Source of the DNA: Planctomycetota bacterium
Lineage (GTDB): Bacteria > Planctomycetota > JACOTG01
Assembly (NCBI GenBank): GCA_016178505.1
Contig: JACOTG010000201.1
Coordinates: forward strand, 2,413-66,412
Length of the DNA stretch: 64,000 bases
Direction of reading: 5' to 3'
Shown here: positions 118 to 16,090 of the stretch, in pieces
How positions within the stretch are numbered: the stretch's first letter is position 1
How the letters are laid out: each line of letters starts with the position of its first letter
The notes under the pieces: model-generated
What the model was told of the DNA's origin: nothing
Seen by the model: only the letters and a program-made list of their open reading frames with translations
Database searches by the model: none
Position numbers and translations under genes: made by a program

Positions 118-1281
118 CTAGACATCGTGAAAAACCCGCTGCCTCCGACGAGACGTCGCCCTCGCGATCGCGAGGCCCGGGAGCAACACGACGATGCTTC
201 CCCAAAGCAGCGCTCGAATCCACGTCGGACGGTCGTCCGTTCGGCCGACGCTCCCCTCGGCAGCACCCGTGAATCCGCGCACCTCGGATTCCCAGAACTT
301 CATCCAGCCGGGCTCGAGCTTCGACAGCGTGATCCAATCGATGTCCTGCGGCTCGTAGTGAAGTGCGGCTTGCCAGGCCGGCAGCCGGTCGATCGGGATG
401 TCGCGGCGTGCGGGGATTCGAAAGTGCGCGTTCGCGAGACGCACGCTGGCGTCGATCGAGGTCGCGTACTCGTAGAACTGGCGCGCAAGGTCGGGCGAGG
501 GTCCACCCTTCACGACGGCGAGGCTGTCGGTGATCACGGGAACGTCGCGCTCCGGCACGACGGTCTCGAAGTGGTAGCCGTACCGCTCCCGCTGGAACAC
601 GATGTCCGTGAGATTCCAGACGGTGACCGTCGCTTCACCGCGCTCCATCATCTGATTGAGCAGCGTCGAGTCGGCAGCGTACCCCTTCGTGTTTCGCGCC
701 AGCTCGCGGAGCCAAACGGCCGCGCGCTCCGGTCGTGCCACGGGCCCATCGAGGCGCGCGACCGTCGCGGAAAAAAAGCTGCGCATCGTCCCCGACTCGA
801 TCGGATAGCGAATGACGATTTGGCCGCGGAACCGCGGATCGAGGAGTTCATCGAAAGTGCGGGGTGCATCTTCCGGACGAAGTCGCTCGGAGTTGTAGGC
901 GATGCAGATCGGAAGCGAAAACTGGCCGAACCAGAGATCGTGCGGGTCACGGGCGGCCTTCGGCACGGCATCGGCCCAGCTCGGTCGATAGGAATCGAGG
1001 AGTTTCTCCTCGGCGGCGCGGATGAAAAGGGTCGACGGCCCGCCCCACCAAAGGTCGGCCTGCGGGTTCCCGCGTTCCGCACGAATTCGGTCGAGGCAGG
1101 CCTGCGCACCGAGATCGAGCCAGCGAACGTCGACTCCCGGGTGGGCTTCCTCGAACCCACGTTCGAATTCCTCGAGGATGTCCTTGCCGTGCGGCGAGTA
1201 GATCGTGAGAGTGCGCGCGGGCGCCTCGCGTAGGAGGCTCGCGAAGAGGAATAGACTCGCCAGTGCCGGGAGATCGAGCAT
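118..1281 (-). CDS. ABC transporter periplasmic substrate-binding protein (SBP family 1, Fe3+/thiamine/polyamine type) with an unusual C-terminal TM helix and Arg-rich tail
   Basis: ORF 118..1518(-) trimmed to Met of MLDLPALASLFLFASLL (signal peptide). TLTIYSPHG...DLWWGGP pattern typical of FbpA/TbpA-like SBPs. The longer ORF N-terminus overlaps the neighbouring gene. C-terminus PTWIRALLWGSIVVLLPGLAIARATSRRRQR. Confidence 0.6.
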   Translation of the reverse strand: MLDLPALASLFLFASLLREAPARTLTIYSPHGKDILEEFERGFEEAHPGVDVRWLDLGAQACLDRIRAERGNPQADLWWGGPSTLFIRAAEEKLLDSYRPSWADAVPKAARDPHDLWFGQFSLPICIAYNSERLRPEDAPRTFDELLDPRFRGQIVIRYPIESGTMRSFFSATVARLDGPVARPERAAVWLRELARNTKGYAADSTLLNQMMERGEATVTVWNLTDIVFQRERYGYHFETVVPERDVPVITDSLAVVKGGPSPDLARQFYEYATSIDASVRLANAHFRIPARRDIPIDRLPAWQAALHYEPQDIDWITLSKLEPGWMKFWESEVRGFTGAAEGSVGRTDDRPTWIRALLWGSIVVLLPGLAIARATSRRRQRVFHDV

Positions 1282-1477
1282 CGCGGCCACTCTACCAGTC
1301 ACTTTGTCCCCGGCAAGCGCGCGCCGTCTCACGCTTCGTCGCCGCGGAAGGCTCTGATATGATCTCAAGCCCTTTTCGTCACGGGTCCGATAGCGAACCG
1401 TCGGCGGAAAGTGCGGCGGCCGTTGCGGGCGCGGAGGAGAGGACGGGGGACGCGCAGGAAACGAAAGGACCGTTTTT

Positions 1478-2788
1478 TTGAAGATCGGGATCCTCGGGGC
1501 CGGCGTGACCGGACTCATGACCGGTAATCTTCTCCGGGAGCGCGGCTACTCGGTTCAGCTCTTCGAGTCCGAGTCGAAGCCCGGCGGCCTTTGTCGTAGT
1601 TCCGTCGTCGACGGATTCGTCTTCGACTGGGCGGGCGGCCACATCCTCTACACGAAGGATCGCGAAGTCCACGATCACGTCACGCGCATCATCGGCGCCG
1701 ACCAAATCGTCGAGTCCGAACGGCAGACGAAGATCTTCTATCGCGGAAACTTCGTGAAGTACCCGTTCGAAAACGGACTCGCGGATCTGCCCAAGTCGGA
1801 CAACTTCGATTGTCTCGCCGGCTACATCGAGGCGGCGTTCGCACGACGCAACGGCGCCTCAGCGAAACCGTCGAACTTCAAGGACTGGGTGCTTTGGCGA
1901 TTCGGTCCAGGGATCGCGAAGCACTTCATGTTCCCGTACAACGAGAAGATCTGGAAGGCCGATCTCGCGTCGCTGAGCATCGATTGGGTCGACGGCCGTG
2001 TGCCCGATGCACCGATCGAGGACGTCATTCGATCTTCGATCGGGATTCCCACCGAGGGCTACACGCACCAGGCCCGATTCCGGTATCCCCGTCGCGGCGG
2101 GTTCGGAACGCTCACCGACAGACTCGCCGAGACGCTGGGCGAGGACGTTCGACTTTCAACGCCGGTCCTTCAAGTGCGCCGGCTTGGGAGCGAGTGGGAA
2201 GTCAACGGCGAGCGGTTCGACCGCGTGATCAATACGATTCCGCTACAAGAGCTATATCGTCGTCTCGAGGGCGCCGACCCGACGGCAAGAGCGGCGGCGG
2301 AAGGCCTTCAATTCCGCGGGCTGGTGTCCATTCTCATCGGAGTCGACGGACCGGAGCCAACTCGCCACTCCTGGATTTATCTGCCACACCCCGAGAACGG
2401 ACCAGCGAATCGGATCACTCATCTCGCCAACTACAGCCCAGAGAATGCGCCTCCGGGAAAGCACAGCCTTCTTGCCGAGGTCACGTACGAGGGCGACCTC
2501 CGCGTCGATCAACGTTTCGTCGACGACGTCGTCGACGGACTCCACAGAAGCGGCCTGGTCGACAAGAAGAAGGTCGTGACGACCGCATTTCACAAGAGTC
2601 ATTACGCTTACGTCCTGTTCACGCACGGCTTCCAGCGCAACCTCGACACGGCGACTCACTGGCTCGACTCGATCGGTCTCCACACGGCGGGGAGGTTCGG
2701 GCGGTACGAGTACTTGAACTCCGATCAATGCATGCGCCGGGCGATCGACCTCGTCGACAAGCACTTCCCACCCGTGAAATCGAACTGA
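1478..2788 (+). CDS. FAD-dependent oxidoreductase (amine oxidase / protoporphyrinogen oxidase / UDP-galactopyranose-mutase-like fold)
   Basis: N-terminal Rossmann motif IGILGAGVTGL...ESESKPGG. FPYNEKIW and GRFGRYEYLN motifs typical of this flavoenzyme family. TTG start as given by the ORF track. Confidence 0.6.
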   Translation: MKIGILGAGVTGLMTGNLLRERGYSVQLFESESKPGGLCRSSVVDGFVFDWAGGHILYTKDREVHDHVTRIIGADQIVESERQTKIFYRGNFVKYPFENGLADLPKSDNFDCLAGYIEAAFARRNGASAKPSNFKDWVLWRFGPGIAKHFMFPYNEKIWKADLASLSIDWVDGRVPDAPIEDVIRSSIGIPTEGYTHQARFRYPRRGGFGTLTDRLAETLGEDVRLSTPVLQVRRLGSEWEVNGERFDRVINTIPLQELYRRLEGADPTARAAAEGLQFRGLVSILIGVDGPEPTRHSWIYLPHPENGPANRITHLANYSPENAPPGKHSLLAEVTYEGDLRVDQRFVDDVVDGLHRSGLVDKKKVVTTAFHKSHYAYVLFTHGFQRNLDTATHWLDSIGLHTAGRFGRYEYLNSDQCMRRAIDLVDKHFPPVKSN

Positions 2789-3000
2789 CCTCCCGAGGAC
2801 TCCCGCGGACCGTCGCCTACGGTTACCCAACGAGCCGTGCGTCACGAGTCCGTGACTGCCCACGACGCGGTACACCTGCGATTCCCGCAGTTTCGACGCG
2901 GCACGCGCGGTGCGTCCCGCCCTTGCCGTCCCAGCGCCGGACGCAGGGGCGCGCGATCGACGTGATCGGAGGCGAACCGAGATCAGGGAGGTGACGAGCC

Positions 3001-4776
3001 ATGAACGCGATTCGATTGGCCACAATGATGTCGCTGTCCGTTCTCGGCGGGTTCTCGTCGGCACGCGCGCAGTGCCCTCCGATGCCGTCGAGGCCCGTGC
3101 CGCCGCCGTACGTCAAGCCGCTTCCCGCGAAGCCCAATGCCGGAGTGACGCCGAAGACCGAGGCCGGAGCCGCGCCCGCGCCGACGCCGGAGCCGACTTC
3201 GTGGTGGGGGCTTTGGGCGCGTGTCGGGGCACCATACGTCTTCGATCGGATCGCAGCCACGGAGCCAACGACGTCCGCCGCCGATTTCCTCCTTGGGCGA
3301 TCGGGCGGCCGATCGGCTCCTACGCGAGTGGCTCTCGTCCCCCGCGCAGCCGCCGACGCGTCAATCTCGGCGCTTCTCGACGCGCTCACGGATCCGAGCG
3401 CGGAGGTTCGCGCCGCGGCGGCAATCGCCGTTGGCCGCGCCGGTGATCCATTCGTGCGAGCTCGCCTCGAACGATCGCTCTCCGATTCGAACGACCGCGT
3501 ATGTGCATCGGCAACTCTGGGACTTGGCATGATGGGCGTGAACGACGAAGCCGACGCGCTCCGCCATCTCCTCGCTGACGACGTAGCTGGACGGCGACTC
3601 GCCAGACGGGAATCGGTTCCGACTGCCGCGAGGGCTTCCGCGGCGAGGGCTCTCGGGTTCCTCCGCGATGCGTCGAGCAGCGGTGCGTTGATCGCCGTCC
3701 TCACTGGCCGCGGGAGCGGCGCCCAGGACGACGTTGCACTCGCCGCGCTAGAAGCGCTGGGGTCGATCGATTCGGACGCGTCGACGTCCGCGCTCGTCGG
3801 CATCGCGTCGAGTGGCGGTCAAAGCGACGTGAGGCGTGCGTCTGCACTGGAATCGCTCGGGCGACGTGGAGCCCGCGCCGGTCTGCCATTGGCGATGCGT
3901 GCCTTGCGGGACGGAGGACGCGAGAGCGCGAGGTCTGCCGCTTTGGCGCTCGGTCGGCTTGTCTCGTCGGCCGATTCACGCGTGGTTGCCGAAATCGGGG
4001 TGCTCGCGGAGCGCCACGACCGTGACCCGATCACTCGCGGCATCGCTTGTTTGGCCCTCGGTGCGCTCGGAGGTCGCGACGCGCAGGAGATTCTCGGCCG
4101 AGTGATCCAACGCGACCGTTCCGACGCCGCGCAATTTTCAGCGATTGCGCTCGGGTTCCTCGCTCGAACCACGACGCCAACCGTGACGGCGATGGGCGAG
4201 ACGGCGACGTCGATCCTCCTCGCTTCGATGGCATCGGCAGACCAGCGCGGCGCTGATTTCCGCGCTGCCGTCGCACTGGCCCTTGGTCTCGCGCGGGCCC
4301 ACGATGCGGAAGAGGAACTCCATGTCATGCTGAACTCGCCGGGAGACAAGCTCGTCCGGGTTCGAGGCTCCGCGGCGATCGCGCTCGGCCTCCTCGGTTC
4401 TCACGTCGCTGTCCCCGACATTGCGGCGCTCACCAGGCGATGCGGGATCGAGCAACTGCCCCAGTGCGGCGTGGGGCTCGCACTCCTTTCGAGGCGTCAA
4501 TCTGCGGCCGAGATCGAAGCGCGGCTTTTTTCTGCTGAGACCGACGTCGAGCGCGTCGCGGCCGTCGCAACGCTGGGTTCGATCCGTTCACTGGACTCGG
4601 TCCCGGTTCTCGTTGCCGCCGCACGCGATCGATCCTCGTCCGAATCGCTTCGATCCGCCGCGATCTCGGCGCTAGGCCGCATCGTGGACGCGAGGACCAT
4701 CCCAATCGTGGTCTCGTCGAATTCCGTCGATTCGACCATGGAGCGCGCGGTATCCGATCTGCTTTCTCGACTCTGA
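3001..4776 (+). CDS. secreted HEAT/PBS-lyase-type repeat protein
   Basis: Signal peptide MNAIRLATMMSLSVLGGFSSARAQ. Repeated DP..VRAAAA.ALG..G motifs (HEAT-like). RBS gggagg 7 nt upstream of the ATG. Confidence 0.6.
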   Translation: MNAIRLATMMSLSVLGGFSSARAQCPPMPSRPVPPPYVKPLPAKPNAGVTPKTEAGAAPAPTPEPTSWWGLWARVGAPYVFDRIAATEPTTSAADFLLGRSGGRSAPTRVALVPRAAADASISALLDALTDPSAEVRAAAAIAVGRAGDPFVRARLERSLSDSNDRVCASATLGLGMMGVNDEADALRHLLADDVAGRRLARRESVPTAARASAARALGFLRDASSSGALIAVLTGRGSGAQDDVALAALEALGSIDSDASTSALVGIASSGGQSDVRRASALESLGRRGARAGLPLAMRALRDGGRESARSAALALGRLVSSADSRVVAEIGVLAERHDRDPITRGIACLALGALGGRDAQEILGRVIQRDRSDAAQFSAIALGFLARTTTPTVTAMGETATSILLASMASADQRGADFRAAVALALGLARAHDAEEELHVMLNSPGDKLVRVRGSAAIALGLLGSHVAVPDIAALTRRCGIEQLPQCGVGLALLSRRQSAAEIEARLFSAETDVERVAAVATLGSIRSLDSVPVLVAAARDRSSSESLRSAAISALGRIVDARTIPIVVSSNSVDSTMERAVSDLLSRL

Positions 4777-4781
4777 TTTCA

Positions 4782-4827
4782 CATTGCAGCCCGCCCTCCG
4801 GCACGCGCGGGCTGCAATGTCGTTTTT
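4782..4827 (+). terminator. rho-independent terminator after the HEAT-repeat gene
   Basis: Perfect 13-bp inverted repeat cattgcagcccgc / gcgggctgcaatg with a 12-nt loop, followed by tcgttttt. Confidence 0.6.
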
Positions 4828-4854
4828 GACTTGAGCCACGCCGCCGCCTATACT
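4826..4854 (+). promoter_or_regulatory. sigma-70-like promoter (TTGACT-N17-TATACT) upstream of the kinase-activator fusion gene
   Basis: ttgact at 4826-4831, 17-nt spacer, tatact at 4849-4854, about 70 nt upstream of the ATG at 4926. Confidence 0.45.
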
Positions 4855-4925: not shown

Positions 4926-7900
4926 ATGATCGTCAACGGCCGGTATCGCGTCGCACGCGAGTTGGGGCACGGCTCGTATGCCAAGGTGTATCTGGCATCG
5001 GACAAAGAGCGACCCGGCGCGCACGTAGCTCTCAAGATCCTCGATCTCCCGGCGGACACCGCGGCGCCACGAACCGCCGACACGCGGGACGACGACGCGC
5101 GAACGGCATCACGCGACATCAAGAAGGAATTCCGTCTCCTCACACGCCTCCGCCATCCGAATCTGGAGGAGGTGTACGACTTCGGCGTGGACCGCGACAC
5201 CGGCCATCTCTTCTTCACTGCGGAATTCATCGAAGGGTCGGATTTCGTCACTGCAATCAGGACTGCCACGCCCGACGAGTTCGTGCGATTCGTCGTTCAG
5301 ATCCTCGAAGCTCTCGAGTTCATCCACGGTCGGGACGTCGTTCATGGCGATCTCAAGCCGGAAAACGTGCTTGTCTGTGCCGCGACGGACGACGGCTCCG
5401 TCGCACGGCAAGTCAAGCTCCTCGACTTCGGACTTGCGGGCGCGCGACGACGGCTTGCTTCGGGAGACGGCGGAGCACGTGGCACGCTCGGCTACGCGGC
5501 CCCGGAGGCTGTCATGGGCCGCGAGGTCGATGCACGCTCCGATCTCTACGCGCTCGGGATCCTCCTGTTTCAATCCATCACCGGCGCGTTACCGGCGACG
5601 AAGGCCGCACTCGGTTCGCGCGAGCATTGGAGCGAGATCGAGATGATCGTGCGCGAGAAGTCGACCCAGTTTCCCGAGCCGTTCGCGACGATGCTTCCGA
5701 GGCTCGTCGCCGAAGATCCCAACGCGCGTTGGACCTCTGCGCGCGAAGTTCTCGATCTCCTTCGTCGGGCGCAAGTCGGTTCCGTTCGTGATCCGGCGTC
5801 GTCTCGCATCCCTGCCGAAGTGCCGTTCGTCGGGCGTCGCGAGGAGCTCGCGATCCTCCGACGACTTCACGACGACGTTGCCGAACGGAAGCACGGCCCG
5901 CGAGTCGCGGTCGTCGTCGGCGAGCCGGGCTGCGGCAAGGGGCGACTTCTAGATGAGCTGAAGTACCACGGACAACTGCGCGAAGGGGACGTCGTGTCCG
6001 TGAACGCAGCTGGAGCCGGCGACTCGGCACTGGCCCTGATTCGCCAGATCGTGCGAAGGCTCTCCGAGTCACTCGACCCGTCGGATCTCGCAGCGCACGC
6101 CTCCCTTTTCGCGTCGCTCGGGCTTCGCGACGGGGAGGGTCGGGTCCTGACGCGACCGGTGTTGGGAGCGATGTTCGTTCGCTTTCTGTTGGCGCTCGCG
6201 GATCAACGGCCGCGCACGATCGTAGTGAAGAACGTCGGCGTCGCCGACGCAGCGAGTCGGGACTTGTTGGCTCACGCCGCGTGGCGGCTGTCAGTCGAAG
6301 GTGAGGCCGGTCGAGCGCCGTTGCTCCTCGTCTTCTCTCTCGATCCGGCGATCGCTACACCGGGATTCGAGGCGGACCTTCGCGCCGAGGGAAAAGCGGT
6401 AGAGATCCGCCTTTCGGGTTTCGACGTCACCGAAAGCCGTGCGTTTCTCCAGTCGTTTCTCGGGGGCGGCTCGGCAACGTCGGACCGAGCGGCGTTCGAG
6501 CGATTCGCCGACGAACTTCATGGCGAGTCGAAGGGAAACCCATTGTTCCTTCGTGACCTTCTGCGCTTCGTTGCGGACTCGGGGCGGCTCGCGTGGGACG
6601 CCGGGAACTGGCGGATCCAGCGGACGAAGGGTCGCGGACCGGCGCTTCCGCGTGCGGTATCGGCACTGCTCGAGGCGCGATATCGATCGCTCGACGCGCC
6701 GATGGCATCGGTGTTGGAGGCGTTGTCGGTGGCGAGGCGGCCCATTCATGCTTCGTTGATCGCGACATCGGTAGGCATTCTAGAGCCAGAGGCTCGAGCT
6801 CTCGTCGAGAAGCTTGTCGCGCTCGGAGTCGCTTCACGGGATCCCAAATCGGATCTGTTCTCGACAGGACACCCGCTCATGCAGGCGGTCGTCGAGCGCT
6901 CGCTGGCGGAAGAAAAACGCCAGGCGCTCCATGCTCGCCTCGGCGAAGCCATGTTGGCGACTTTGGGCGATCCGAATGGGCCGGGCGCAGGCGACGTTGC
7001 TCGGCATCTTCTCGCCAGCGCGACTCCGCGTCTGGGGATCAAAATCGCACTTCTCGCGGCGGACGAGGCATTGGAGCGTGGCGATCCGGGCGCGGCAGCC
7101 GACCTCTTTGCGCGCGTCGCCGAAATCGTTGAGTCGCCGGACGCGCGCCCGCCGAGAGGTAAGGGCGTCAATGGGACGCCGCCCGTCAGCGAGATTCACG
7201 TGCGCCACGGCACGGCGGCGTTGCGAGCTGGGCGATTCGAGGAAGCGGAATCTGCCGTTCGTGCCGCGATGCAGGGTGAACGCGACCCCGCGAGGCAAGC
7301 TGCGCTCACTCGCTCGCTCGGCGAAGCACGTCAGCGACGGGGAGATTTCGACGGTGCGCTCGCCGCGTACGAAGAAGCGCTTGCCATGGCGCGCAAGTCG
7401 GACGATCCAGCGACTGAGGCACTCGCACAGAACGCCGTCGGCTATTTGCACTCGCTTTGCGGACGGTACGAGCAGGCGCTTCGTGCGGCTCAGTCCGGGC
7501 TCGATCGACTTCGATCGGCGAGGACGCGCGAGCGCGCACTCTTGCTGAACTTGAAAGCCGTGTGTGAGCTTCGGCTCGGGCGCCACGAGGCGGCCATAGA
7601 ATCGGCGCGGGCAAGCCTATCGCTTTTCGAGGAGCTGTCGGACGAGTCGGGTCAGGCGTCGGCGCTCAACAACCTCGGCATCATCTACGACCGTCGTGGC
7701 GAGACGCCGCTCTCGCTGGAGGCGTATCGAAACGCCGCGCGCCTCTATGAGAAGGCCGGAAACGTCTCCGATCACGCGACGACGTTCAACAACATGGGAA
7801 CGGTTCTCCTTCTTCAGGGTGCGCTCGGTCCAGCTCGGGAACTCTTCGAGAAGAGCCTTGCGATGCGCGAAGAATTGGGAGATCGCTACGGCGTCGCCAC

Positions 7901-10292
7901 GTCCATCGCGAACCTCGGTACGGTGGCACGCGACGCCGGGCGCTTCGCGGACGCCCTCGATCGATACGAGCGAAGTCTCGCGCTGTTCGAACGCGTCGGA
8001 AGTCCGCGCGAGGAAACCATCGTTCGAAACCACCGAGCCGACCTCTTTCTGCAGCTTGGTGACGCCGACGCCGCGCGCTCCGAAATCGCCCGGGCTTCGT
8101 CGATTGCCAAGGCACACAAGCTTGCCACGGAAACCGCGCGATCGACCCTGTTCAGCGCGCGACTCGTGTTGCTGGAGCATGCCGCGACCGGAGATCCGGC
8201 GTGTCTCGCGAAGGCGCGCGAGGCGTTGAGCGCGGCCGATTCGATGTTGCGCGAGATCGGCGACGCACGGCTGCGATGCGAGGTTCTCCTCGATGTCGCT
8301 GACGTCGACTTCGAGCGCGGCGACGCGTCGTCCGCCAGAGAGTCGGCAAACGAAGCAAAACGCATCGCGGACTCGTTGCGCCACGTCGATCTATCCGCGC
8401 GAGCCGCCATGGCGTGCGCGCACGCGAGCGACGACTCCGATGCCCGGCTGAGGCTTCTCGTGTTTGCCGGAGAGCGTGCCGTCGAATCGAGCCGTCCGAT
8501 CGTTTGTGCGCGGGCGTCGTCGGCCCTTGCCGCAGAGTACGGCCGACGCGGAGACGCGAAGTCGGGGGGGGAGTGGCTCGTGCGCGCGGAAAAGGCGATG
8601 GCACAACTCCGCCTTGGCGTACCCGCTGCGCGGCGCGCCGCGTTCGATCGATCGCCCGTCGTCGCCGCCATCGATTTCGCCATGCGTGCGGCGCGGGAAG
8701 TCCCAGCGCCGGCGACCACGACCGCCGCTGGCGCAGACATGGAGCGCGCGGGCCGTGCGTCGATGATTGCGCTTCTGGAGATCAACAAGCGTCTGAACAC
8801 CGAAGGCGACTTCGATCGGCTCCTCGAGTTCATCATAGACTCCGCGATCCGGCTGACGAACGCCGAGCGAGGGTTTCTGGTGTTGACCGGAGACGACGGC
8901 TTGTCGTTCCGCGTGGCTCGCAATTTCAACATGCGCGACATCGATCGCCCCGAATTCGCCGTGAGCCGCTCGATCCTGAATGAGGTGATCGGAAGCGGTC
9001 GGCCGATGATCACCTCGGACGCGCAAGCGGACGCACGGCTTCGCGCATTCACCAGCGTCAGCGACTTGAAGCTGTCTTCGATCCTGTGCACGCCATTCAA
9101 GGCGAAGGATCGCGTGCTCGGGGCCATCTATGTCGACAACCGATTCGAACGAGGACTCTTCGGAGAGGTCGACCTCGAGCTGCTGAAGGCGTTCGCGGAC
9201 CAAGCCGCGATCGCGATCCAAAACTTGCGCCGTACGGCCGAGATCGAGGCGCTGAATCAACGACTCGCCGAGCGCGTGCAGATCCAAGCAACTGAAATCG
9301 AGGGGGCGCGAAAGGAGCGCGAACGGGAAAGCGAGGGGTTCCGACGGCGTTTTGCAGAGATCATCGGCCAAAGCCGGAAGATGCAAGACGTCTATCGACT
9401 CATCGACAAGCTCGCGCCGAGCGACATTCCCGTGTTGATTCTCGGCGAGAGCGGCACGGGAAAGGAACTCGTCGCGAAGGCGATCCACGCGGCGAGCGTG
9501 CGCAAGGACAAGATCTTCTTGTCCGAGAACTGCTCGTCGATTCCAACGACGCTGCTCGAAAGCGAGCTGTTCGGGTATGCAAGGGGCGCTTTCACGGGCG
9601 CCGTCGGCGACAAGAAAGGACTGTTCGAGCTCGCCCACGGCGGAACGATCTTCCTCGACGAAATCGGAGACATGCCGCCGGAGATGCAGATGAAGCTCCT
9701 GCGCGTGTTGCAAGAGCGTGAGTTTCGTCCGCTCGGCGCCAAGGACGTTCGGCACGTCGACGTCCGATTGGTCTCAGCGACCAATCGGGATCTCCCTCGC
9801 GCGGTCGGCGAAGGCTCGTTTCGCAGCGATCTCTACTATCGAATCAATGGAGCAACGATCGTGCTTCCGCCGCTTCGAGAGCGGGCCGAAGACATTCCCC
9901 TGCTGCTAGACCACTTTCTAGCGAAGTTCAGTCGCGAATCGGGCGTGCACCACGAGTTGTCTCCCGATGCGAGAAAGGTGCTTCTCTCGTGGCGTTGGCC
10001 GGGCAACGTTCGCGAACTGGAGAACGAGGTTCGGCGCGCGGTCGCGCTCGGCGATCGCGTCATTGACGTCAATCTGCTGTCGCCCGATATCCGCGAAGCG
10101 CGTGTAGCACTCGTGGATCCGGCGACGTGTGCCAGCCCGCCGATCAAATCGCTCGAGGAGATGGAAAAGCAAGCGATTGCGGTGGCACTCCAGCAATGCT
10201 CCGGCAACAAGCCGGAGGCGGCGCGTCGCCTCGGCATTTCGCTCGCCTCGATCTACGTGAAGATCAAGCGGTACGGGATTCAAACCAAATAG
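4926..10292 (+). CDS. multidomain signalling protein: Ser/Thr protein kinase, STAND (MalT/PknK-like) P-loop NTPase, TPR repeats, GAF, sigma-54 interaction (AAA+) domain and Fis-type HTH (1788 aa)
   Basis: Kinase motifs GHGSYAKVY, HGDLKPENVLV, DFGLA, GTLGYAAPE. P-loop GEPGCGKGRLL (nt ~5921) and GNPLFLRDLL. TPR-like repeats in aa ~750-1100. GAF (LGAIYVDNRF). Sigma-54 AAA+ motifs LILGESGTGKE (nt ~9431), ESELFGY, GAFTGA, ELENEVRRA. C-terminal HTH AARRLGISLASIYVKIKRYGI. Confidence 0.8.
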   Translation: MIVNGRYRVARELGHGSYAKVYLASDKERPGAHVALKILDLPADTAAPRTADTRDDDARTASRDIKKEFRLLTRLRHPNLEEVYDFGVDRDTGHLFFTAEFIEGSDFVTAIRTATPDEFVRFVVQILEALEFIHGRDVVHGDLKPENVLVCAATDDGSVARQVKLLDFGLAGARRRLASGDGGARGTLGYAAPEAVMGREVDARSDLYALGILLFQSITGALPATKAALGSREHWSEIEMIVREKSTQFPEPFATMLPRLVAEDPNARWTSAREVLDLLRRAQVGSVRDPASSRIPAEVPFVGRREELAILRRLHDDVAERKHGPRVAVVVGEPGCGKGRLLDELKYHGQLREGDVVSVNAAGAGDSALALIRQIVRRLSESLDPSDLAAHASLFASLGLRDGEGRVLTRPVLGAMFVRFLLALADQRPRTIVVKNVGVADAASRDLLAHAAWRLSVEGEAGRAPLLLVFSLDPAIATPGFEADLRAEGKAVEIRLSGFDVTESRAFLQSFLGGGSATSDRAAFERFADELHGESKGNPLFLRDLLRFVADSGRLAWDAGNWRIQRTKGRGPALPRAVSALLEARYRSLDAPMASVLEALSVARRPIHASLIATSVGILEPEARALVEKLVALGVASRDPKSDLFSTGHPLMQAVVERSLAEEKRQALHARLGEAMLATLGDPNGPGAGDVARHLLASATPRLGIKIALLAADEALERGDPGAAADLFARVAEIVESPDARPPRGKGVNGTPPVSEIHVRHGTAALRAGRFEEAESAVRAAMQGERDPARQAALTRSLGEARQRRGDFDGALAAYEEALAMARKSDDPATEALAQNAVGYLHSLCGRYEQALRAAQSGLDRLRSARTRERALLLNLKAVCELRLGRHEAAIESARASLSLFEELSDESGQASALNNLGIIYDRRGETPLSLEAYRNAARLYEKAGNVSDHATTFNNMGTVLLLQGALGPARELFEKSLAMREELGDRYGVATSIANLGTVARDAGRFADALDRYERSLALFERVGSPREETIVRNHRADLFLQLGDADAARSEIARASSIAKAHKLATETARSTLFSARLVLLEHAATGDPACLAKAREALSAADSMLREIGDARLRCEVLLDVADVDFERGDASSARESANEAKRIADSLRHVDLSARAAMACAHASDDSDARLRLLVFAGERAVESSRPIVCARASSALAAEYGRRGDAKSGGEWLVRAEKAMAQLRLGVPAARRAAFDRSPVVAAIDFAMRAAREVPAPATTTAAGADMERAGRASMIALLEINKRLNTEGDFDRLLEFIIDSAIRLTNAERGFLVLTGDDGLSFRVARNFNMRDIDRPEFAVSRSILNEVIGSGRPMITSDAQADARLRAFTSVSDLKLSSILCTPFKAKDRVLGAIYVDNRFERGLFGEVDLELLKAFADQAAIAIQNLRRTAEIEALNQRLAERVQIQATEIEGARKERERESEGFRRRFAEIIGQSRKMQDVYRLIDKLAPSDIPVLILGESGTGKELVAKAIHAASVRKDKIFLSENCSSIPTTLLESELFGYARGAFTGAVGDKKGLFELAHGGTIFLDEIGDMPPEMQMKLLRVLQEREFRPLGAKDVRHVDVRLVSATNRDLPRAVGEGSFRSDLYYRINGATIVLPPLRERAEDIPLLLDHFLAKFSRESGVHHELSPDARKVLLSWRWPGNVRELENEVRRAVALGDRVIDVNLLSPDIREARVALVDPATCASPPIKSLEEMEKQAIAVALQQCSGNKPEAARRLGISLASIYVKIKRYGIQTK

Positions 10293-10322
10293 CCTGGGCT
10301 CTACACGGCGGCATCATTTTTG

Positions 10323-10351
10323 TTGCGATGCGCTTTCGTGACGGCTAGATT
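10323..10351 (+). promoter_or_regulatory. possible sigma-70 promoter (TTGCGA-N17-TAGATT) upstream of the Kelch/dockerin gene
   Basis: Hexamers read by eye in the AT-richer intergenic region 10293-10401. Confidence 0.3.
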
Positions 10352-10401
10352 GAATTGCACAACACTAGTGAGTCGGGGCTGTTCGAGGGTCGTTTGAGGG
10401 G

Positions 10402-12444
10402 ATGCCAGACATGGATCGAAGAACATTCTGCTTCAGCATCATCACTGTTAGCATGACAGCGTGGGCGAGTCTGTGCCGGGCTGATCAACCCTTGACAGGA
10501 GATCTGAACTTCGATCGCGTCATCGATGTGTCCGATTTCAGTCTGCTATATGGTTACATCCAGGGAAACAATGGGTTAAGTACGGATCAGCTCGCTGTCG
10601 CCGACATCAATCACGACGGTGTCGTGGATCTGATGGATGTCCGACGCGGGATGACTCGGTATGGCCGCCGTGTTCACTTCGAAGTTCCGCCGTTCGACCC
10701 GTTCGATCCAGCACGTCCAGTTCTCGACAAAGTCATGCCCGGATTCGGGCCAACCCGAACCCTGGTGACCCTGATCGGGTCCGGATTCGACCCGGTCGCA
10801 GCGAACAACGTGGTCCGGTTGGCGGGCGACGTCATGACCGTATTGTCCGCGTCGGCCACAGCGCTCACATTTCGAGTGCCATCGACTGCGCGGACCGGGA
10901 GCATCACGGTCGAGATCGGTGGGCTCGAAAGCTGCGGGGTCCCGTTCCTCGTGGGCGACGCGCCACCGACGACGAACCCCAACTCGGCGACGATCGGAAG
11001 CGAGGACGTCGGCCTCGTCCTTCCCAGCATTGCGGTTGCGCCGGGCTCTCGAATCGAGATTCCGGTGGAGTTCGATTCCGGCAATCATGATTTGGTCGGC
11101 GTCGATTTTCGCATCACGTTCGATCCGACCGTCCTCCATGCCGTCGAGATGGAGCCACTGCCAACGGTTCGGTTCGGCCAGCACTTCTATCGTTGCATCG
11201 ACAACACGACGGGCGTGATCGCGGGAGCGTTCGGATTCGGCCGGACGCCCGGTCGTGCCGTCCAGGTCGCAAATCTGGTGTTCGACGTCGTCGGGACGCC
11301 GGGTCGAATCGGGACCGTCGGCGGTCGCTTGAATGCCATGGCAGACATGGCGCAGCCAACGACTCTTGCCAGCGGTCCGAGATTCCTTTCGTCGAGTCAG
11401 AGCTTCGTTCTGGTTTCGGACGGGACTTTTTCGGAATCGTTGCGCCTTCTCAGCGAGGCAAGGGTTCACGCGACAGCCAACGCCTTGCCGGATGGACGCG
11501 TCCTCATCGCGGGAGGGGACTCGACGAATGGACAGATCCTCTCGAGCGCGACGATATTCGATCCATCGACGGGCGTCGTCACTCCTCATCCCACGGGAAT
11601 GGCCACCTCACGAACCGGTCATTCGGCGACGACGCTCAGCGACGGGCGGATCGTGATCGCGGGTGGCCGCAGCGTCAACGGACCGTTGTCGTCGATCGAG
11701 ATTTTCGAGCCGAGTTCGAACTCGTTCAGAACGGTTTCGCGACAGCTCTCGTCGGCCCGTTCGGATCATGCGGCGGTCCTCATGGCCGACGGGCGAATCG
11801 CTTGGATTGGCGGGCGGGGCGCGTCTGGCGTTCTTGCGAGCGTCGAGGTGTTCGACCCTGCGCTCGAAACGGTTACACGTCTTTCGCTGCCGATGAACGT
11901 TGCTCGATCCGGCCCGTCGGTCGCGCTCCTCTCGACGGGCAACCTCATCGTCACGGGGGGCGTCGGAACGGACGGGCAAGGGGTCCGTTTGGAGTTGACC
12001 GAGATCTACGATCCGATCGGTCTCTCGACGACTTACATCAACGAGAGTTCGGGTCATCGAGTCGGTGCTTTGCATCGGGCGACGCGCCTTCCGTCGGGGA
12101 CGGTAGTGCTCAGCGGAGAAGGTGAAGCCTCACGGTTCGACGTTTCGGATGGCGAATACGAATCGCTGGCAGTGCTCCGCGACTCACGCACCGGACACGT
12201 TGCGGTGCCGCTTCCCGATGGCGCTCTGTTCGTGAGCGCGGGATACGGAGTTGGAGTCCCGGTGCTCCGTACGAGTGAAATCCTCGGCCGAACCTCGGCT
12301 ACGGTCACGTCGCAAGGACCGTTGCTGTTCACCGCGCGAGCGGAGGCGACGGGAGTCGCGTTTCCGGATGGTCGCGTGGTCGTCGTCGGAGGCCTCGATT
12401 GGAACGGGAATCCGATCGCTTCGGTCGAGGTCATGCGACCCTAG
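10402..12444 (+). CDS. secreted protein with N-terminal dockerin-type Ca-binding repeats, an IPT/TIG domain and a Kelch-type beta-propeller
   Basis: Signal peptide. Dockerin-like DLNFDRVIDVSDFSLL...ADINHDGVVDLMDV. IPT-like PVLDKVMPGFGPTRTLVTLIGSGF. Six or more Kelch-like blades (DGRVLIAGG, DGRIVIAGG, DGRIAWIGG, GNLIVTGG, DGRVVVVGG). Confidence 0.7.
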   Translation: MPDMDRRTFCFSIITVSMTAWASLCRADQPLTGDLNFDRVIDVSDFSLLYGYIQGNNGLSTDQLAVADINHDGVVDLMDVRRGMTRYGRRVHFEVPPFDPFDPARPVLDKVMPGFGPTRTLVTLIGSGFDPVAANNVVRLAGDVMTVLSASATALTFRVPSTARTGSITVEIGGLESCGVPFLVGDAPPTTNPNSATIGSEDVGLVLPSIAVAPGSRIEIPVEFDSGNHDLVGVDFRITFDPTVLHAVEMEPLPTVRFGQHFYRCIDNTTGVIAGAFGFGRTPGRAVQVANLVFDVVGTPGRIGTVGGRLNAMADMAQPTTLASGPRFLSSSQSFVLVSDGTFSESLRLLSEARVHATANALPDGRVLIAGGDSTNGQILSSATIFDPSTGVVTPHPTGMATSRTGHSATTLSDGRIVIAGGRSVNGPLSSIEIFEPSSNSFRTVSRQLSSARSDHAAVLMADGRIAWIGGRGASGVLASVEVFDPALETVTRLSLPMNVARSGPSVALLSTGNLIVTGGVGTDGQGVRLELTEIYDPIGLSTTYINESSGHRVGALHRATRLPSGTVVLSGEGEASRFDVSDGEYESLAVLRDSRTGHVAVPLPDGALFVSAGYGVGVPVLRTSEILGRTSATVTSQGPLLFTARAEATGVAFPDGRVVVVGGLDWNGNPIASVEVMRP

Positions 12445-12654: not shown

Positions 12655-12682
12655 TTGATTCCGTCGGGGCAGCGGGTATAGT
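12655..12682 (+). promoter_or_regulatory. sigma-70-like promoter TTGATT-N16-TATAGT upstream of the prepilin-type gene
   Basis: ttgatt 12655-12660, tatagt 12677-12682. RBS ggagg 8 nt before the ATG at 12730. Confidence 0.4.
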
Positions 12683-12729
12683 CTGTCGCATTTATTATCG
12701 TCACGCAGGGCAACGTGGAGGCGACTGCC

Positions 12730-13413
12730 ATGAGAATCCGCCGAGGAAACCCGGGTTTCACCATGGTCGAGCTGCTCGTCGTGATTGCGGTGATCGCGAC
12801 GATTTCGTCGATCATCTTGCCGAGTCTGCTCGGCGCACGGATGAGCGCCGCTGAGAGCGCGGCGATGGCGACCCTTCGCACCATCTGTTCAGCGGAGACG
12901 AGCTTCCACGAACGCCAGAGCGCCGACCGCGACGCTGATGGCGAGGGCGAGTACGGATTCCTCGCGGAAATGGCGGGCACCGTGATTCCGCCCCGGGCCG
13001 TGCAAGTCGTCAACCCGCCGATGCTCCCGAACTCCTTCCGCGTGATGAGCTCCGGGTACGTGAGCCGAACGGGCTATCTGTTCCGAGTGGTCCTCCCGGG
13101 CCTCGGCGGCGTTCCCGCCACCGAGGCGGCGACGGGAGGCGAGGACGCGGCGGCGCCGGTCGATTCGAACTTGGCCGAGGCGATCTGGGTCGCCTACTGC
13201 TGGCCGTCCGTCCGCGGCACGACGGGATTCCGAGCGTTCATGGTGAACCAGAGCGGTGCGATCATGCAGACCGACAACGTCGTCCAGGGCTACACCGGGT
13301 ACACGACGCCGATCACACCCGACGCCGCGTTTACGTCGCCGAACAACATCGCGTCGCCGGTCGCATTCAACGCTGCGGGCAACGACGGAGGAATCTGGAA
13401 GCCGGTGCGCTAG
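12730..13413 (+). CDS. prepilin-type N-terminal cleavage/methylation domain protein (type II secretion pseudopilin / type IV pilin-like)
   Basis: MRIRRGNPGFTMVELLVVIAVIATISSIILPSL is the classic prepilin peptidase motif (G|FT.E) followed by a hydrophobic helix. Start moved to the ATG with RBS (ORF track starts at GTG 12715). Confidence 0.65.
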   Translation: MRIRRGNPGFTMVELLVVIAVIATISSIILPSLLGARMSAAESAAMATLRTICSAETSFHERQSADRDADGEGEYGFLAEMAGTVIPPRAVQVVNPPMLPNSFRVMSSGYVSRTGYLFRVVLPGLGGVPATEAATGGEDAAAPVDSNLAEAIWVAYCWPSVRGTTGFRAFMVNQSGAIMQTDNVVQGYTGYTTPITPDAAFTSPNNIASPVAFNAAGNDGGIWKPVR

Positions 13414-13442
13414 ACTTTTCATCGCAGATTGCGAAACGCATA

Positions 13443-13473
13443 ATGCCGAGGTGAACCGCACCTCGGCATTTTT
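13443..13473 (+). terminator. rho-independent terminator after the prepilin-type gene
   Basis: atgccgaggtg / cacctcggcat 11-bp stem with aaccg loop, followed by tttt. Confidence 0.6.
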
Positions 13474-13474
13474 C

Positions 13475-14488
13475 GTGGCCGGAGTCGACGACCTCGTCGA
13501 TGTCATCGTGCGCGCAACGGTGCGCCACGAGTTCACGACCTACCTCATCGGCAGTCGGCTCCCGTCCTCGCTGGAGCCCGGAGCGGCGCGTGAGACCAAG
13601 CGGTTGCTCCACGCGGACATCTCGAGTGCGCTCGATCGGAAGTGGTTCGGACGACGAGTCGATTTCGACGATCCCGAAATTCGAATCCTCGTCGACGTCA
13701 CCCACCGAGAGGCGACGGTTTGGTCAGCGCCGGCGTGGCTGGTTGGTCGCTATCGGAAGTTCGACCGAGAGCTCCCGCAGAGTCGCTGGCCTTGCCGCCG
13801 TTGCCGCGGCTCCGGATGCGAGCGTTGCCTCGGCACCGGCAAGACCTACGTCGAGAGCGTCGAGGAAGCGATCGGCGGTACGGCGCTCCTGGCGTGCGAA
13901 GGTGTGGCGACTCGATTCCACGCCGTCGGCCGCGAGGACGTCGACGCTCGGATGCTGGGGACCGGCCGGCCGTTCGTCCTCGAGATCGTGGAGCCGCTGC
14001 GTCGAGCTGCGGATCTCGACCCCATCCAGCGAGTCGTGACCGAAACGTGGGCGGGGCGAGTCGGCGTCAGCGGACTTCGTTGGGGAAGCGCTCACGACGC
14101 CGAAGCCGTCAAGGCTCGGGAATGCGAGAAGAGCTATCGGGTCGTGATTGCCGCGCCGCGTCCGCTGTGTTCCGAGGATGCGGCTCGCATCGCGGATTTG
14201 ACGTCGGCCGAGCTGAAGCAGGAGACTCCGAATCGGGTTCTTCATCGACGGGGCGACGTGCGTCGACGACGACGAGTCTTTCGAGCGGAAGCACGTTCGA
14301 TCCGCGGAGGTCTCATCGAGGCGCGCTTCCGGGTCCAATCGGGAACCTACGTCAAGGAGCTGGTCTCGGGGGACTCGGGCCGAACGACCCCGAGTGTCTC
14401 GGCGCTTCTCGGCACGGCGTGCCGGGTTCTCTTACTCGACGTCGTCGCCGTTCACGATGACATCACCGCGCTCCCCCACGACTCATGA
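13475..14488 (+). CDS. tRNA pseudouridine synthase Pus10 family (archaeal/eukaryotic-type psi54/psi55 synthase) homologue; start uncertain
   Basis: Zn ribbon CRRCRGSGCERCLGTG. Signature AVGREDVDARMLGTGRPFVLEI (catalytic Asp region of Pus10) and YVKELVSGDSGRTTPSVSALLG. The ORF track N-terminus (from 13256) overlaps the pilin gene and terminator. The first in-frame GTG after the terminator is 13475; 13508 and 13520 are alternatives. Confidence 0.55.
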   Translation: MAGVDDLVDVIVRATVRHEFTTYLIGSRLPSSLEPGAARETKRLLHADISSALDRKWFGRRVDFDDPEIRILVDVTHREATVWSAPAWLVGRYRKFDRELPQSRWPCRRCRGSGCERCLGTGKTYVESVEEAIGGTALLACEGVATRFHAVGREDVDARMLGTGRPFVLEIVEPLRRAADLDPIQRVVTETWAGRVGVSGLRWGSAHDAEAVKARECEKSYRVVIAAPRPLCSEDAARIADLTSAELKQETPNRVLHRRGDVRRRRRVFRAEARSIRGGLIEARFRVQSGTYVKELVSGDSGRTTPSVSALLGTACRVLLLDVVAVHDDITALPHDS

Positions 14489-15541: not shown

Positions 15542-16090
15542 CTAGCGAGCCTCCGCCGCCAGGTCGCCGGTCGGGGGACGGAACGTCGTTCGGGCCCAGA
15601 GGGCCCAGACTCCGAAGACGAATGCGATGAAGAACGTTTGCCAGACATACACGTGTATGAACTCGAACGCGGAACTCTCGCGACTCGCCAGGTAGAATAG
15701 CGTGACGACCCGCACCAAGTTGAGCAGGAATATCGCCGGCAAGCCCACCAGGAGACCCAAGCCGCGAGAACGCCACGATGCCGGAAACGCGACGATGGCA
15801 GCAACGAACAGGATCCACTCGTACGTGACGTCGCATCCGTGCGCAATGGTGATCGCCGAGCCGCTCGAGGGAACCAGCGTCAATCCGTTTCGAACGACGG
15901 CTTCGCCGAGGACCTCGAGCACACAGGCCGCACTGGCAGCGGTCGCGCTCATGAACGGCTCGACGACCGCATCCTCGAGCGCGGGAACGAAGAGGAGCGC
16001 GAAGAGCACGATGACGATTCCGCCGAAGCGCAAGCAGAAGCGAAGTGGCGCGGAGCGCGTCCCAATCCGCCCGGATTCGGTCGAAGGCAT
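15542..16090 (-). CDS. putative minimal exosortase/archaeosortase-family membrane protein
   Basis: 5 TM helices. ITIAHGCDVTYEWILF (Cys in a TM helix, cf. the exosortase ACSG motif) followed about 45 aa later by FLLNLVRVVTLF (N-x-x-R motif, conserved Arg). Resemblance judged by eye only. Confidence 0.35.
   Translation of the reverse strand: MPSTESGRIGTRSAPLRFCLRFGGIVIVLFALLFVPALEDAVVEPFMSATAASAACVLEVLGEAVVRNGLTLVPSSGSAITIAHGCDVTYEWILFVAAIVAFPASWRSRGLGLLVGLPAIFLLNLVRVVTLFYLASRESSAFEFIHVYVWQTFFIAFVFGVWALWARTTFRPPTGDLAAEAR

Follow-up and report, generated by a model that had tools for sequence, protein, structure and literature searches.

How would a single protein work that carries a Ser/Thr kinase at its N-terminus and a sigma-54 activator at its C-terminus, and which gene would it switch on? 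This question is raised by a 64,000-nt stretch of DNA from a Planctomycetota bacterium (assembly GCA_016178505.1, contig JACOTG010000201.1, positions 2,413 to 66,412 of the forward strand; hereafter the window). In this window, one uninterrupted open reading frame (ORF) at 4926..10292 (+) starts with ATG, contains no internal stop and encodes 1788 aa, and we refer to its product as the regulator. The explanation that we judge slightly more probable than its opposite is that the regulator is a cytoplasmic sigma-54 activator, in which a PknK-like sensory module stands before a NifA-like cassette, and that it fires the promoter of the adjacent gene for a secreted Kelch protein.

Domain organization and integrity of the regulator

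The regulator matches a whole series of Pfam domains, namely Pkinase (residues 7-275), AAA_16 (300-453), TPR_12/TPR_MalT (~797-1068), GAF (1295-1432), Sigma54_activat (1479-1645), AAA_lid_14 (1651-1726) and HTH_8 (1742-1783). A first-pass annotation, made from the letters alone, had read the order kinase - STAND - TPR - GAF - sigma-54 AAA+ - helix-turn-helix (HTH) in one ORF, and this order is borne out by the ORF list, the translation and Pfam. The identical sequence is deposited in nr as MBI1852381.1 under the name “sigma 54-interacting transcriptional regulator”. The regulator has no credible transmembrane segment, as the top Kyte-Doolittle mean over 19 residues is 1.73 and falls within a helix of the folded nucleotide-binding/oligomerisation domain (NOD).

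A chain of this length might be suspected to be an artefact, in which an assembly chimera or a frameshift fused a kinase/STAND gene to a separate gene for a GAF-type sigma-54 activator. We found no point in support of this, and it is effectively refuted. The orthologue P0002, which comes from a different assembly, shares 60% identity with the 1788-aa regulator and is colinear with it across 100% of the length, while a second metagenome-assembled genome (MAG) encodes a homologue of identical length with >90% identity. More than 100 independently sourced proteins, 1500-2100 aa in length, have the same architecture. Besides, the GC content at third codon positions is uniform (0.74) along the gene, and internal stops are absent.

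Judging from its motifs, the N-terminus is a Hanks-type Ser/Thr kinase of the non-RD class. The catalytic residues are all present (K37 in VALK, E68, D142, N147, D167-FG and APE at 192-194), the catalytic loop reads H-G-D142-LKPE-N147, and the kinase motifs align with those of StkP and PknB. The catalytic Asp and Lys, which had been called intact by eye, are D142 and K37 in this alignment. In the regulator HGD replaces HRD, that is, the Arg before the catalytic Asp is absent; such non-RD forms (HGD, HND, HAD) predominate in the family of kinase/sigma-54-activator proteins described below. Non-RD kinases are usually independent of activation-loop autophosphorylation.

At the other end of the chain, the GAF domain is followed by a charged linker (1433-1478) with a helical look by eye, and then by a Sigma54_activat domain (PF00158) that scores 240.6 bits over profile positions 1-167 of 168. 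Walker A (GESGTGKE, 9444-9467), the GAFTGA loop (9585-9602; residues 1554-1559) and Walker B (IFLDEIG, 9648-9668) are found in this AAA+ region, as is FRSDLYYR. The region aligns end to end with ZraR (1ojl), whose GAFTGA confirms that the loop is intact as first supposed, and it also matches NifA (9qq6). HTH_8 is the sole DNA-binding domain, and no GerE/LuxR match was found in the regulator by Pfam. By its AAA+ domain, GAFTGA loop and Fis-type HTH, the regulator is classed as a bacterial enhancer-binding protein of the NtrC/NifA superfamily.

A degenerate STAND module

The middle of the chain was modelled with AlphaFold2 (AF2). The model of residues 289-1100 has a predicted local distance difference test score (pLDDT) of 88.5 and a predicted template modelling score (pTM) of 0.77, and in a Foldseek search of the PDB the STAND-TPR protein 6mfv ranks first (E = 1.2e-15), ahead of Apaf-1 and Cdc6. 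On the strength of this model, the assignment of a STAND fold (NOD, helical part, winged-helix part and repeat arm) is sound. Helix pairs are seen up to residue 1100, and the TPR matches in PDB include LGN/Pins; residues 1100-1290, beyond the modelled part, would be helical repeats as well.

The nucleotide-binding motifs of this module are degenerate. The P-loop reads GEPGCGKG (5919-5942), where no Ser/Thr follows the Lys and the Mg-coordinating residue is missing, and the Walker B strand reads TIVVKNVG (6216-6239), where the VVKN end has no acidic residue. In the AF2 model GKG lies between strand 1 and helix 1, and VVKN lies at a strand end, which are the expected places. The STAND motifs of the 60% orthologue are degenerate too (Walker A GEPGIGKA; Walker B TLVVRN). 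Among the 26 aligned proteins, a degenerate P-loop together with a degenerate Walker B is found only in these two: most of the 24 other relatives have GK[ST] in the P-loop, and those whose sequence extends over Walker B retain one or more acidic residues there, many as [DE]D. By fold and descent the regulator is a STAND member, but it is probably not an active NTPase. A switch driven by nucleoside triphosphate (NTP) is unlikely because both Walker A and Walker B are degenerate, and the motifs suggest that it was probably lost in the lineage of the regulator and its orthologue. Nucleotide-dependent oligomerisation, which the first-pass annotation had counted among the possible gates, is accordingly doubtful here.

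A different kind of decay is seen in a Polyangia-type subgroup (P0007, P0013, P0019 and ~35 similar matches). Its P-loop reads GxPGSGRR, with Arg in place of Lys, and its kinase catalytic loop reads HGDV[TC]PxN, with the catalytic-loop Lys lost. In these proteins the same architecture probably houses a pseudokinase and a pseudo-NTPase.

A large family with adjacent sigma-54 sites

A common and already characterised architecture had been named in the first-pass annotation as a refuting outcome, and the architecture did turn out to be common: at least 118 other 90%-identity clusters carry the kinase and sigma-54 domain set. Among the matches listed, which are 1359-2174 residues long with scores down to 451 bits, Pkinase and Sigma54_activat occur together in 118 of the 119 other proteins, GAF in all and HTH_8 in most. 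They come from Planctomycetota, Acidobacteriota (including Thermoanaerobaculia), Polyangia and ‘Deltaproteobacteria’, and the full architecture is also encoded by two GTDB species representatives of Planctomycetota (loci L002 and L003). Automatic labels from JGI call the relatives ‘serine/threonine-protein kinase PknK’ or ‘transcriptional regulator with GAF, ATPase, and Fis domain’. A contig scan of the genome collection with the N-terminal 1290 aa returned only relatives of 24-30% identity. Our full-text literature searches yielded no paper describing or testing a fusion of a kinase with a sigma-54 activator; papers on myxobacterial genomes and kinomes reportedly note such fusions. The regulator is a new member of a large, catalogued and apparently uncharacterised family, not a one-off invention.

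For ten more distant family loci (L002, L003, L008, L009, L010 and L013-L017), we scored the surroundings of the regulator gene with a sigma-54 core matrix derived from Salmonella sites, the same matrix that was applied to the window. Half of them (5 of 10) have a site of at least 10.9 bits with GG-N10-GC intact, which lies in the intergenic region touching the regulator gene and is oriented to the neighbour (Table 1). A random 300-nt strand window, drawn from all the sequences analysed, scores 10.9 bits or more with P = 0.009. From this value, ~0.18 matches are expected in the 20 flanking windows, while five were observed (binomial ~1e-6, by arithmetic from that P). It shows that members of this family adjoin predicted sigma-54 promoters far oftener than chance, and the consensus sites beside five of ten relatives support the model of an adjacent target gene. 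In two more loci (L010 and L015), sites scoring 17-18 bits stand at a distance of one or two genes from the regulator gene, whereas matrix scoring found no nearby site in L009, L014 and L017. The neighbourhoods of the distant members differ, and across the family only the position of the sigma-54 promoter recurs.

Two of these loci deserve description. In L002, from a Planctomycetia MAG (8402-8667 and 8668-10641), a 1997-aa homologue, an AT-rich spacer, the canonical sigma-54 promoter TTGGCATGAATGGTGCT and the gene for a lipoprotein with four Ig-like Big_2 domains stand in a row; like that of the window, the putative target here is a secreted or surface beta-sandwich protein. In L016 (9400-9600), the canonical sigma-54 promoter that follows the kinase-activator gene has AGTCTCA(C/T) three times in the stretch 100-300 nt upstream of it, twice in direct and once in inverted orientation, and these copies are a candidate upstream activator site for that homologue.

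The intergenic region between the regulator and Kelch genes

In the window, the gene directly 3' of the regulator gene encodes the Kelch protein. Its orthologues in L011, L001 and L012 (68%, 55% and 53% identity, respectively) each lie directly 3' of the orthologous activator gene, so that the adjacency is kept in four loci. The first-pass annotation had proposed a search for GG-N10-GC promoters upstream of the Kelch gene and of the pilin-like gene beyond it, and no canonical site was found there. When the whole window was scanned for TGGCAC-N5-TTGC with up to two mismatches, there were 40 matches against 40.25 expected, none of them upstream of either gene. The best-scoring sigma-54 site in the window (63558) was rejected, as it lies inside a coding sequence, by eye a cysteinyl-tRNA synthetase gene.

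The four orthologous intergenic regions have diverged apart from two conserved blocks (Table 1). Block 1 is identical at 13 of 18 positions to the validated Salmonella pspG site TGGCATGATTTTTGTAAG. Validated sigma-54 sites with TGT at -12 are known for Salmonella pspA, pspG and hydN (PMC3844500 Table 3). We regard block 1 as a candidate sigma-54 -24/-12 element of the form GG-N10-GT. Four of the five sites beside relatives share the layout regulator gene - promoter - downstream gene, which is also the position of block 1 in the window, and because of this shared layout we rate the sigma-54 reading of block 1 a little above an even chance. Alternatively, block 1 can be read as a T-tract plus the -35 element (TTGCGA) of a sigma-70-type promoter, which is the main rival to the sigma-54 reading. 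Block 2 would then be the -10 element; its TAGAyT is invariant in the four loci and has a constant spacing, 17-18 nt after the TTGnGn of block 1.

Several other readings and searches gave nothing further. A hairpin or terminator at block 1 was rejected, since the small hairpin that can form has a z near 0 in three of the four loci, and its T-run is part of the loop instead of following the stem. Block 1 has no Rfam match at E <= 1 and no other copy in the window at up to 3 mismatches, and a metagenome scan with the two-block DNA motif returned no matches. An upstream activator site was sought in a codon-aware alignment of the last 507 nt of the four orthologues, where there are fully conserved stretches, which are inseparable from coding constraint and codon bias.

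Proposed mechanism and alternative explanations

The favoured explanation would work as follows. The regulator would be made from its own housekeeping-type promoter. By analogy with activators of the NifA type and of the DctD/NtrC1 type and with MalT/PknK, the GAF domain and the charged linker (1433-1478) would hold the AAA+ domain unassembled and inactive. Release might come through the TPR arm upon binding of a protein or peptide partner, through a small molecule in the GAF pocket, or through auto- or trans-phosphorylation by the kinase. Once freed, the AAA+ domain would form a hexamer and remodel the sigma-54 holoenzyme at a promoter adjoining the regulator gene; the likeliest such promoter here is the GG-N10-GT element at 10309-10327, from which the secreted Kelch protein would be turned on. 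The STAND domain would serve as a scaffold or oligomerisation platform that is independent of nucleotide hydrolysis, not as an NTP-driven switch, because the Ser/Thr of Walker A and both acidic residues of Walker B are lost. The most specific form of this proposal is tentative, and we consider it somewhat unlikely in all its parts: phosphorylation, a TPR partner and a GAF ligand, acting in cis on a dead STAND scaffold, would gate the hexamer, which would fire a promoter with GT at -12, 17 nt past the stop codon, for the Kelch gene, and the same cassette would operate across at least three phyla.

A number of points weigh against this explanation. Block 1 scores just 5.2 bits on the Salmonella-derived core matrix, compared with at least 14.2 bits for the training sites, which puts it at rank 56 in the window; such a score is reached in a random 300-nt window with P = 0.15. 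In block 1, C replaces T at position 1, T replaces C at -12, and position 7 is C. No upstream activator site was found, a search for shared repeated k-mers being unconvincing. No rpoN, sought as an ORF with an RpoN box, is present within the 64-kb window; Planctomycetota in general use sigma-54 (PMC12316311). The adjacency of the activator and Kelch genes may partly be plain synteny, as the window and L001 also share genes for a solute-binding protein and an amine oxidase. The action of the kinase, TPR and GAF inputs on the AAA+ domain is proposed by analogy. Moreover, a sigma-70-type TTGnGn-N17/18-TAGAyT would explain both blocks and their spacing, while the sigma-54 reading explains only block 1. 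It is a real possibility, though not the outcome we expect, that the Kelch gene is no target of the regulator, being read from a sigma-70-type TTGCGA-N17-TAGATT with a T-rich upstream element, and that the sigma-54 promoters of the regulator lie elsewhere in the genome. The -35 TTG and the -10 TAnnnT are invariant in the four loci, with a spacer that is otherwise unconserved; T-tracts also lie 5' of the -35 element in the promoters of the regulator gene and the pilin-like gene. The weak matrix score and the three family loci without a nearby sigma-54 site point the same way. What this alternative leaves unexplained is the CGGCA of block 1, which is invariant 5' of the T-tract and for which a sigma-70 promoter does not account. 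Besides, its hexamers match the consensus at just 3-4 of 6 positions each, our consensus scan did not call the site, and block 1 is placed like the sigma-54 consensus sites of four relatives, just 3' of the regulator stop codon and on the same strand.

The remaining alternatives concern the protein rather than the promoter. The kinase might be a second, independent output: the TPR arm and GAF domain would sense, and the protein would both phosphorylate other proteins and activate sigma-54 transcription, with no intramolecular control of the AAA+ domain by phosphorylation. It would fit the intact catalytic residues and the non-RD class of the kinase, and in PknK, which is the nearest described relative of the N-terminal module, the substrate is a separate transcription factor. 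We consider it unlikely, since the N-terminal kinase is kept in nearly all relatives among the matches listed (118 of 119), which argues for functional coupling, and the Polyangia subgroup keeps the domain although its catalytic-loop Lys is lost, which better fits a regulatory or scaffolding role. It is very improbable that the regulator is a STAND-based conflict or anti-phage system (an Avs-like or kinase-containing defence protein) and not a transcription regulator. PADLOC models of kinase-containing defence proteins (PD-T4-6, mad6 and MkoA), as well as models of RtcR-type activators, match individual domains of the regulator, but they cover only the generic kinase or AAA+ domain and leave out the architecture as a whole. 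No effector domain (nuclease, protease, TIR or any other) is seen by Pfam, the chain ends in a complete sigma-54 activator with HTH, and the neighbours are not defence genes. With nothing beyond generic-domain matches in PADLOC, the defence reading was rejected.

The family is of interest in several respects. Bacteria with complex lifestyles, among them Planctomycetota, Myxococcota and Acidobacteriota, have large expansions of both Hanks-type kinases and sigma-54 activators, and this family joins the two kinds of signalling in one chain. The sigma-54 promoter beside the gene in half of the relatives examined would make each such locus a triplet of regulator, promoter and target, which can be rebuilt in a reporter strain. 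Natural variants offer a comparison of the inputs, with a dead STAND P-loop in the lineage of the window, a dead kinase loop in the Polyangia subgroup and canonical motifs elsewhere. The architecture itself is abundant and built from known modules, so the main value lies in the recurring layout of regulator, promoter and neighbour, which is experimentally tractable.

Flanking genes and other features of the locus

The positions of the features are collected in Table 1.

Table 1. Features of the regulator locus in the window, and candidate sigma-54 sites beside five distant relatives
Feature	Position	Strand	Residues	Basis and remarks
Terminator-like hairpin of the upstream HEAT-repeat gene (3001..4776)	4781..4820	+		Fold; T-run 4823-4827 next
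Sigma-70-type promoter of the regulator gene, TTGACT-N17-TATACT	4826..4854	+		10 of 12 consensus positions
Hanks-type Ser/Thr kinase domain	4944..5750	+	7-275	Pkinase, 126.9 bits against a cut-off of 31.7
STAND nucleotide-binding/oligomerisation domain with helical and winged-helix parts	5790..7124	+	~289-733	Pfam AAA_16; AF2 model
TPR/helical-repeat sensor arm	7185..8795	+	~754-1290	Pfam TPR_12, TPR_MalT and others
GAF domain	8808..9221	+	1295-1432	Pfam
Sigma-54 interaction AAA+ domain and lid	9360..10103	+	1479-1726	Pfam
Fis-type HTH DNA-binding domain	10149..10274	+	1742-1783	HTH_8, 46.3 bits; aligned to the ZraR C-terminus
Block 1, CGGCATCATTTTTGTTGCG	10309..10327	+		Four-locus consensus CGGCAyCwwTTTTGTTGnG; starts 17 nt after the regulator stop codon
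Block 2, TAGATTGA	10346..10353	+		Four-locus consensus TAGAyTrG; candidate -10 element
Candidate target gene (Kelch protein, 680 aa)	10402..12444	+		Signal-peptide-like N-terminus, dockerin, TIG, cohesin, Kelch beta-propeller
Sigma-70-like promoter of the pilin-like gene, TTGATT-N16-TATAGT	12655-12682	+		Consensus scan
Pilin-like gene	12715..13413	+		Prepilin N-terminus GFTMVELLVV; likely start ATG 12730
L002 sigma-54 site, TTGGCATGAATGGTGCT				16.0 bits; 38 nt before a lipoprotein gene with four Big_2 domains
L003 sigma-54 site, CGGCACGTGAAGTGC				10.9 bits; downstream of the regulator gene, same strand
L008 sigma-54 site, TGGCTCGCCCATTGC				13.6 bits; divergent intergenic region, faces the divergent neighbour
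L013 sigma-54 site, TGGCACCTTGTTTGC				11.1 bits; downstream of the regulator gene, same strand, after an AT-rich spacer
L016 sigma-54 site, TGGCATCGACGCTGC				12.3 bits; downstream of the regulator gene, same strand, ~45 nt before a 111-aa gene

On its upstream side, the regulator gene is separated from the HEAT-repeat gene by a hairpin of 15 bp around a small internal loop (-27.3 kcal/mol; z = -4.18), and none of 200 shuffles folds equally well. The clean promoter that had been read before the regulator gene stood up to the consensus scan of the region, which found 5 sites of such quality against 1.0 expected. In the orthologous locus L001, TTGACA-N17-TATACT is located at the same place, with diverged spacer and flanks. 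Because of the upstream hairpin with its T-run and of this promoter, the regulator gene is regarded as its own transcription unit. Further upstream, the solute-binding-protein gene (-) and the amine-oxidase gene (+) are common to the window (118-4776) and L001 (4236-6947). The HEAT-repeat gene (3001-4776; 591 aa, signal-peptide-like start) is found only in the lineage of the window and is absent from L001. The intergenic sequence CGGCACGCGCGGTGC at 2899-2913 (+), 88 nt upstream of this gene, has the form GG-N10-GC with two consensus mismatches; it was given no weight, as the count of matches at two mismatches equals chance and the HEAT-repeat gene is absent from L001.

On the downstream side, the secreted Kelch/dockerin gene and the pilin-like gene named in the first-pass annotation are supported by domain and N-terminus evidence. 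As targets of the regulator, however, they fared differently. The Kelch gene gains from its pairing with the activator gene in four loci and from the sigma-54 sites beside the genes of relatives, whereas the pilin-like gene has a sigma-70-like promoter, no sigma-54-like element was seen at it, and nothing supports it as a sigma-54 target. It follows the Kelch gene in L011 too, but not in L001. The Kelch protein combines dockerin and cohesin in one chain with TIG and a Kelch propeller, and this combination suggests that it self-assembles or acts as a scaffold at the surface. Its first residues (MPDMDRRTFCF...) are similar to a twin-arginine signal, and the start given by NCBI is 30 codons later. 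A metagenome scan with the Kelch protein returned no matches.

Some more distant neighbours were also recorded. An ORF for a Pus10-type tRNA pseudouridine(54/55) synthase follows the pilin-like gene (13256-14488, +) and recurs in L011 (3713-4744). The copy in the window scores 306.6 bits with TIGR01213 (cut-off 200) and 206 bits with Pfam Pus10_C; as ~50 codons at its 5' end overlap the pilin-like gene, translation probably starts further downstream. Enzymes of the Pus10 type are usually considered to belong to archaea and eukaryotes. Nearby there is a short homologue of the exosortase EpsH (15542-16090, -; 5287-5814 in L011), which covers only profile positions 106-252 of 254, and a 454-aa protein (17771-19135, -) has a C-terminal tail, PPPPPMEVSAIGPLGIAALAAMIALYTAFLFRRAS, similar to a PEP-CTERM sorting signal. 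A PEP-CTERM link of the Kelch protein was rejected despite the exosortase fragment nearby, since the Kelch protein has no such tail.

Comparison with known systems

The C-terminal 510 residues of the regulator have the same GAF domain, linker, sigma-54 AAA+ domain with GAFTGA and Fis-type HTH as the GAF-type activators NifA, FhlA and NorR. The NifA model TIGR01817 matches from profile position 4 to 468 (of 534) with 380.4 bits, short of its cut-off of 528.85, and the likeness to NifA is one of layout only; models of NorR and FhlA also match, and as all scores are below the equivalog cut-offs, the regulator is none of these named regulators. It differs from them by ~1290 residues (kinase, STAND and TPR) before the GAF domain, and nif, hyc and nor genes are absent near its gene.

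With MalT/LAL regulators, it shares a STAND NTPase region and a TPR-like sensor arm (TPR_MalT) joined to a DNA-binding output in one chain, and the idea in common is ligand-controlled oligomerisation that activates transcription. Where those regulators have a LuxR HTH that acts on sigma-70 holoenzyme, however, its output is a sigma-54 AAA+ motor with a Fis-type HTH; it has an additional N-terminal kinase and lacks the NTPase motifs needed for an ATP switch of the MalT type. By its domains and profile scores, the regulator is neither a MalT/LAL regulator, as it has no LuxR HTH, nor a NifA, NorR or FhlA equivalog. The closest structure to residues 289-1100, the PH0952-type STAND-TPR protein (6mfv; 745 alignment columns, 14% identity), has no kinase, GAF or sigma-54 module, unlike the regulator.

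PknK of Mycobacterium tuberculosis, a Hanks kinase fused to a MalT-like STAND/TPR region, has the same N-terminal order of kinase, P-loop STAND and TPR, and acts on a separate transcription factor. A C-terminal LuxR HTH, given in the first-pass annotation as the normal end of PknK-like proteins, typifies MalT/LAL regulators rather than PknK. Of the two, only the regulator adds a complete sigma-54 activator at the C-terminus, which would place DNA binding and output in cis, and its STAND Walker motifs are degenerate.

As for the candidate promoter, block 1 (cGGCATcATTTTTGTtgc) can be set beside the PspF-dependent promoters of Salmonella: compared with pspG it has C for T at the first position and C for G at position 7, and TTGT at -12 occurs in pspA as well (PMC3844500 Table 3). 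Block 1 is a candidate element and the organism is unrelated.

The coupling of Hanks-type kinase signalling to sigma-54 transcription is a logic shared with the enhancer-binding proteins of Myxococcus that carry an FHA domain. Jelsbak, Givskov and Kaiser are said to have described in 2005 a Myxococcus Ser/Thr kinase that acts in trans on a sigma-54 activator through the phospho-threonine-binding FHA domain. In the Myxococcus systems the kinase and the activator are separate and linked via FHA, whereas the regulator has both in one chain and, by Pfam, no FHA domain.

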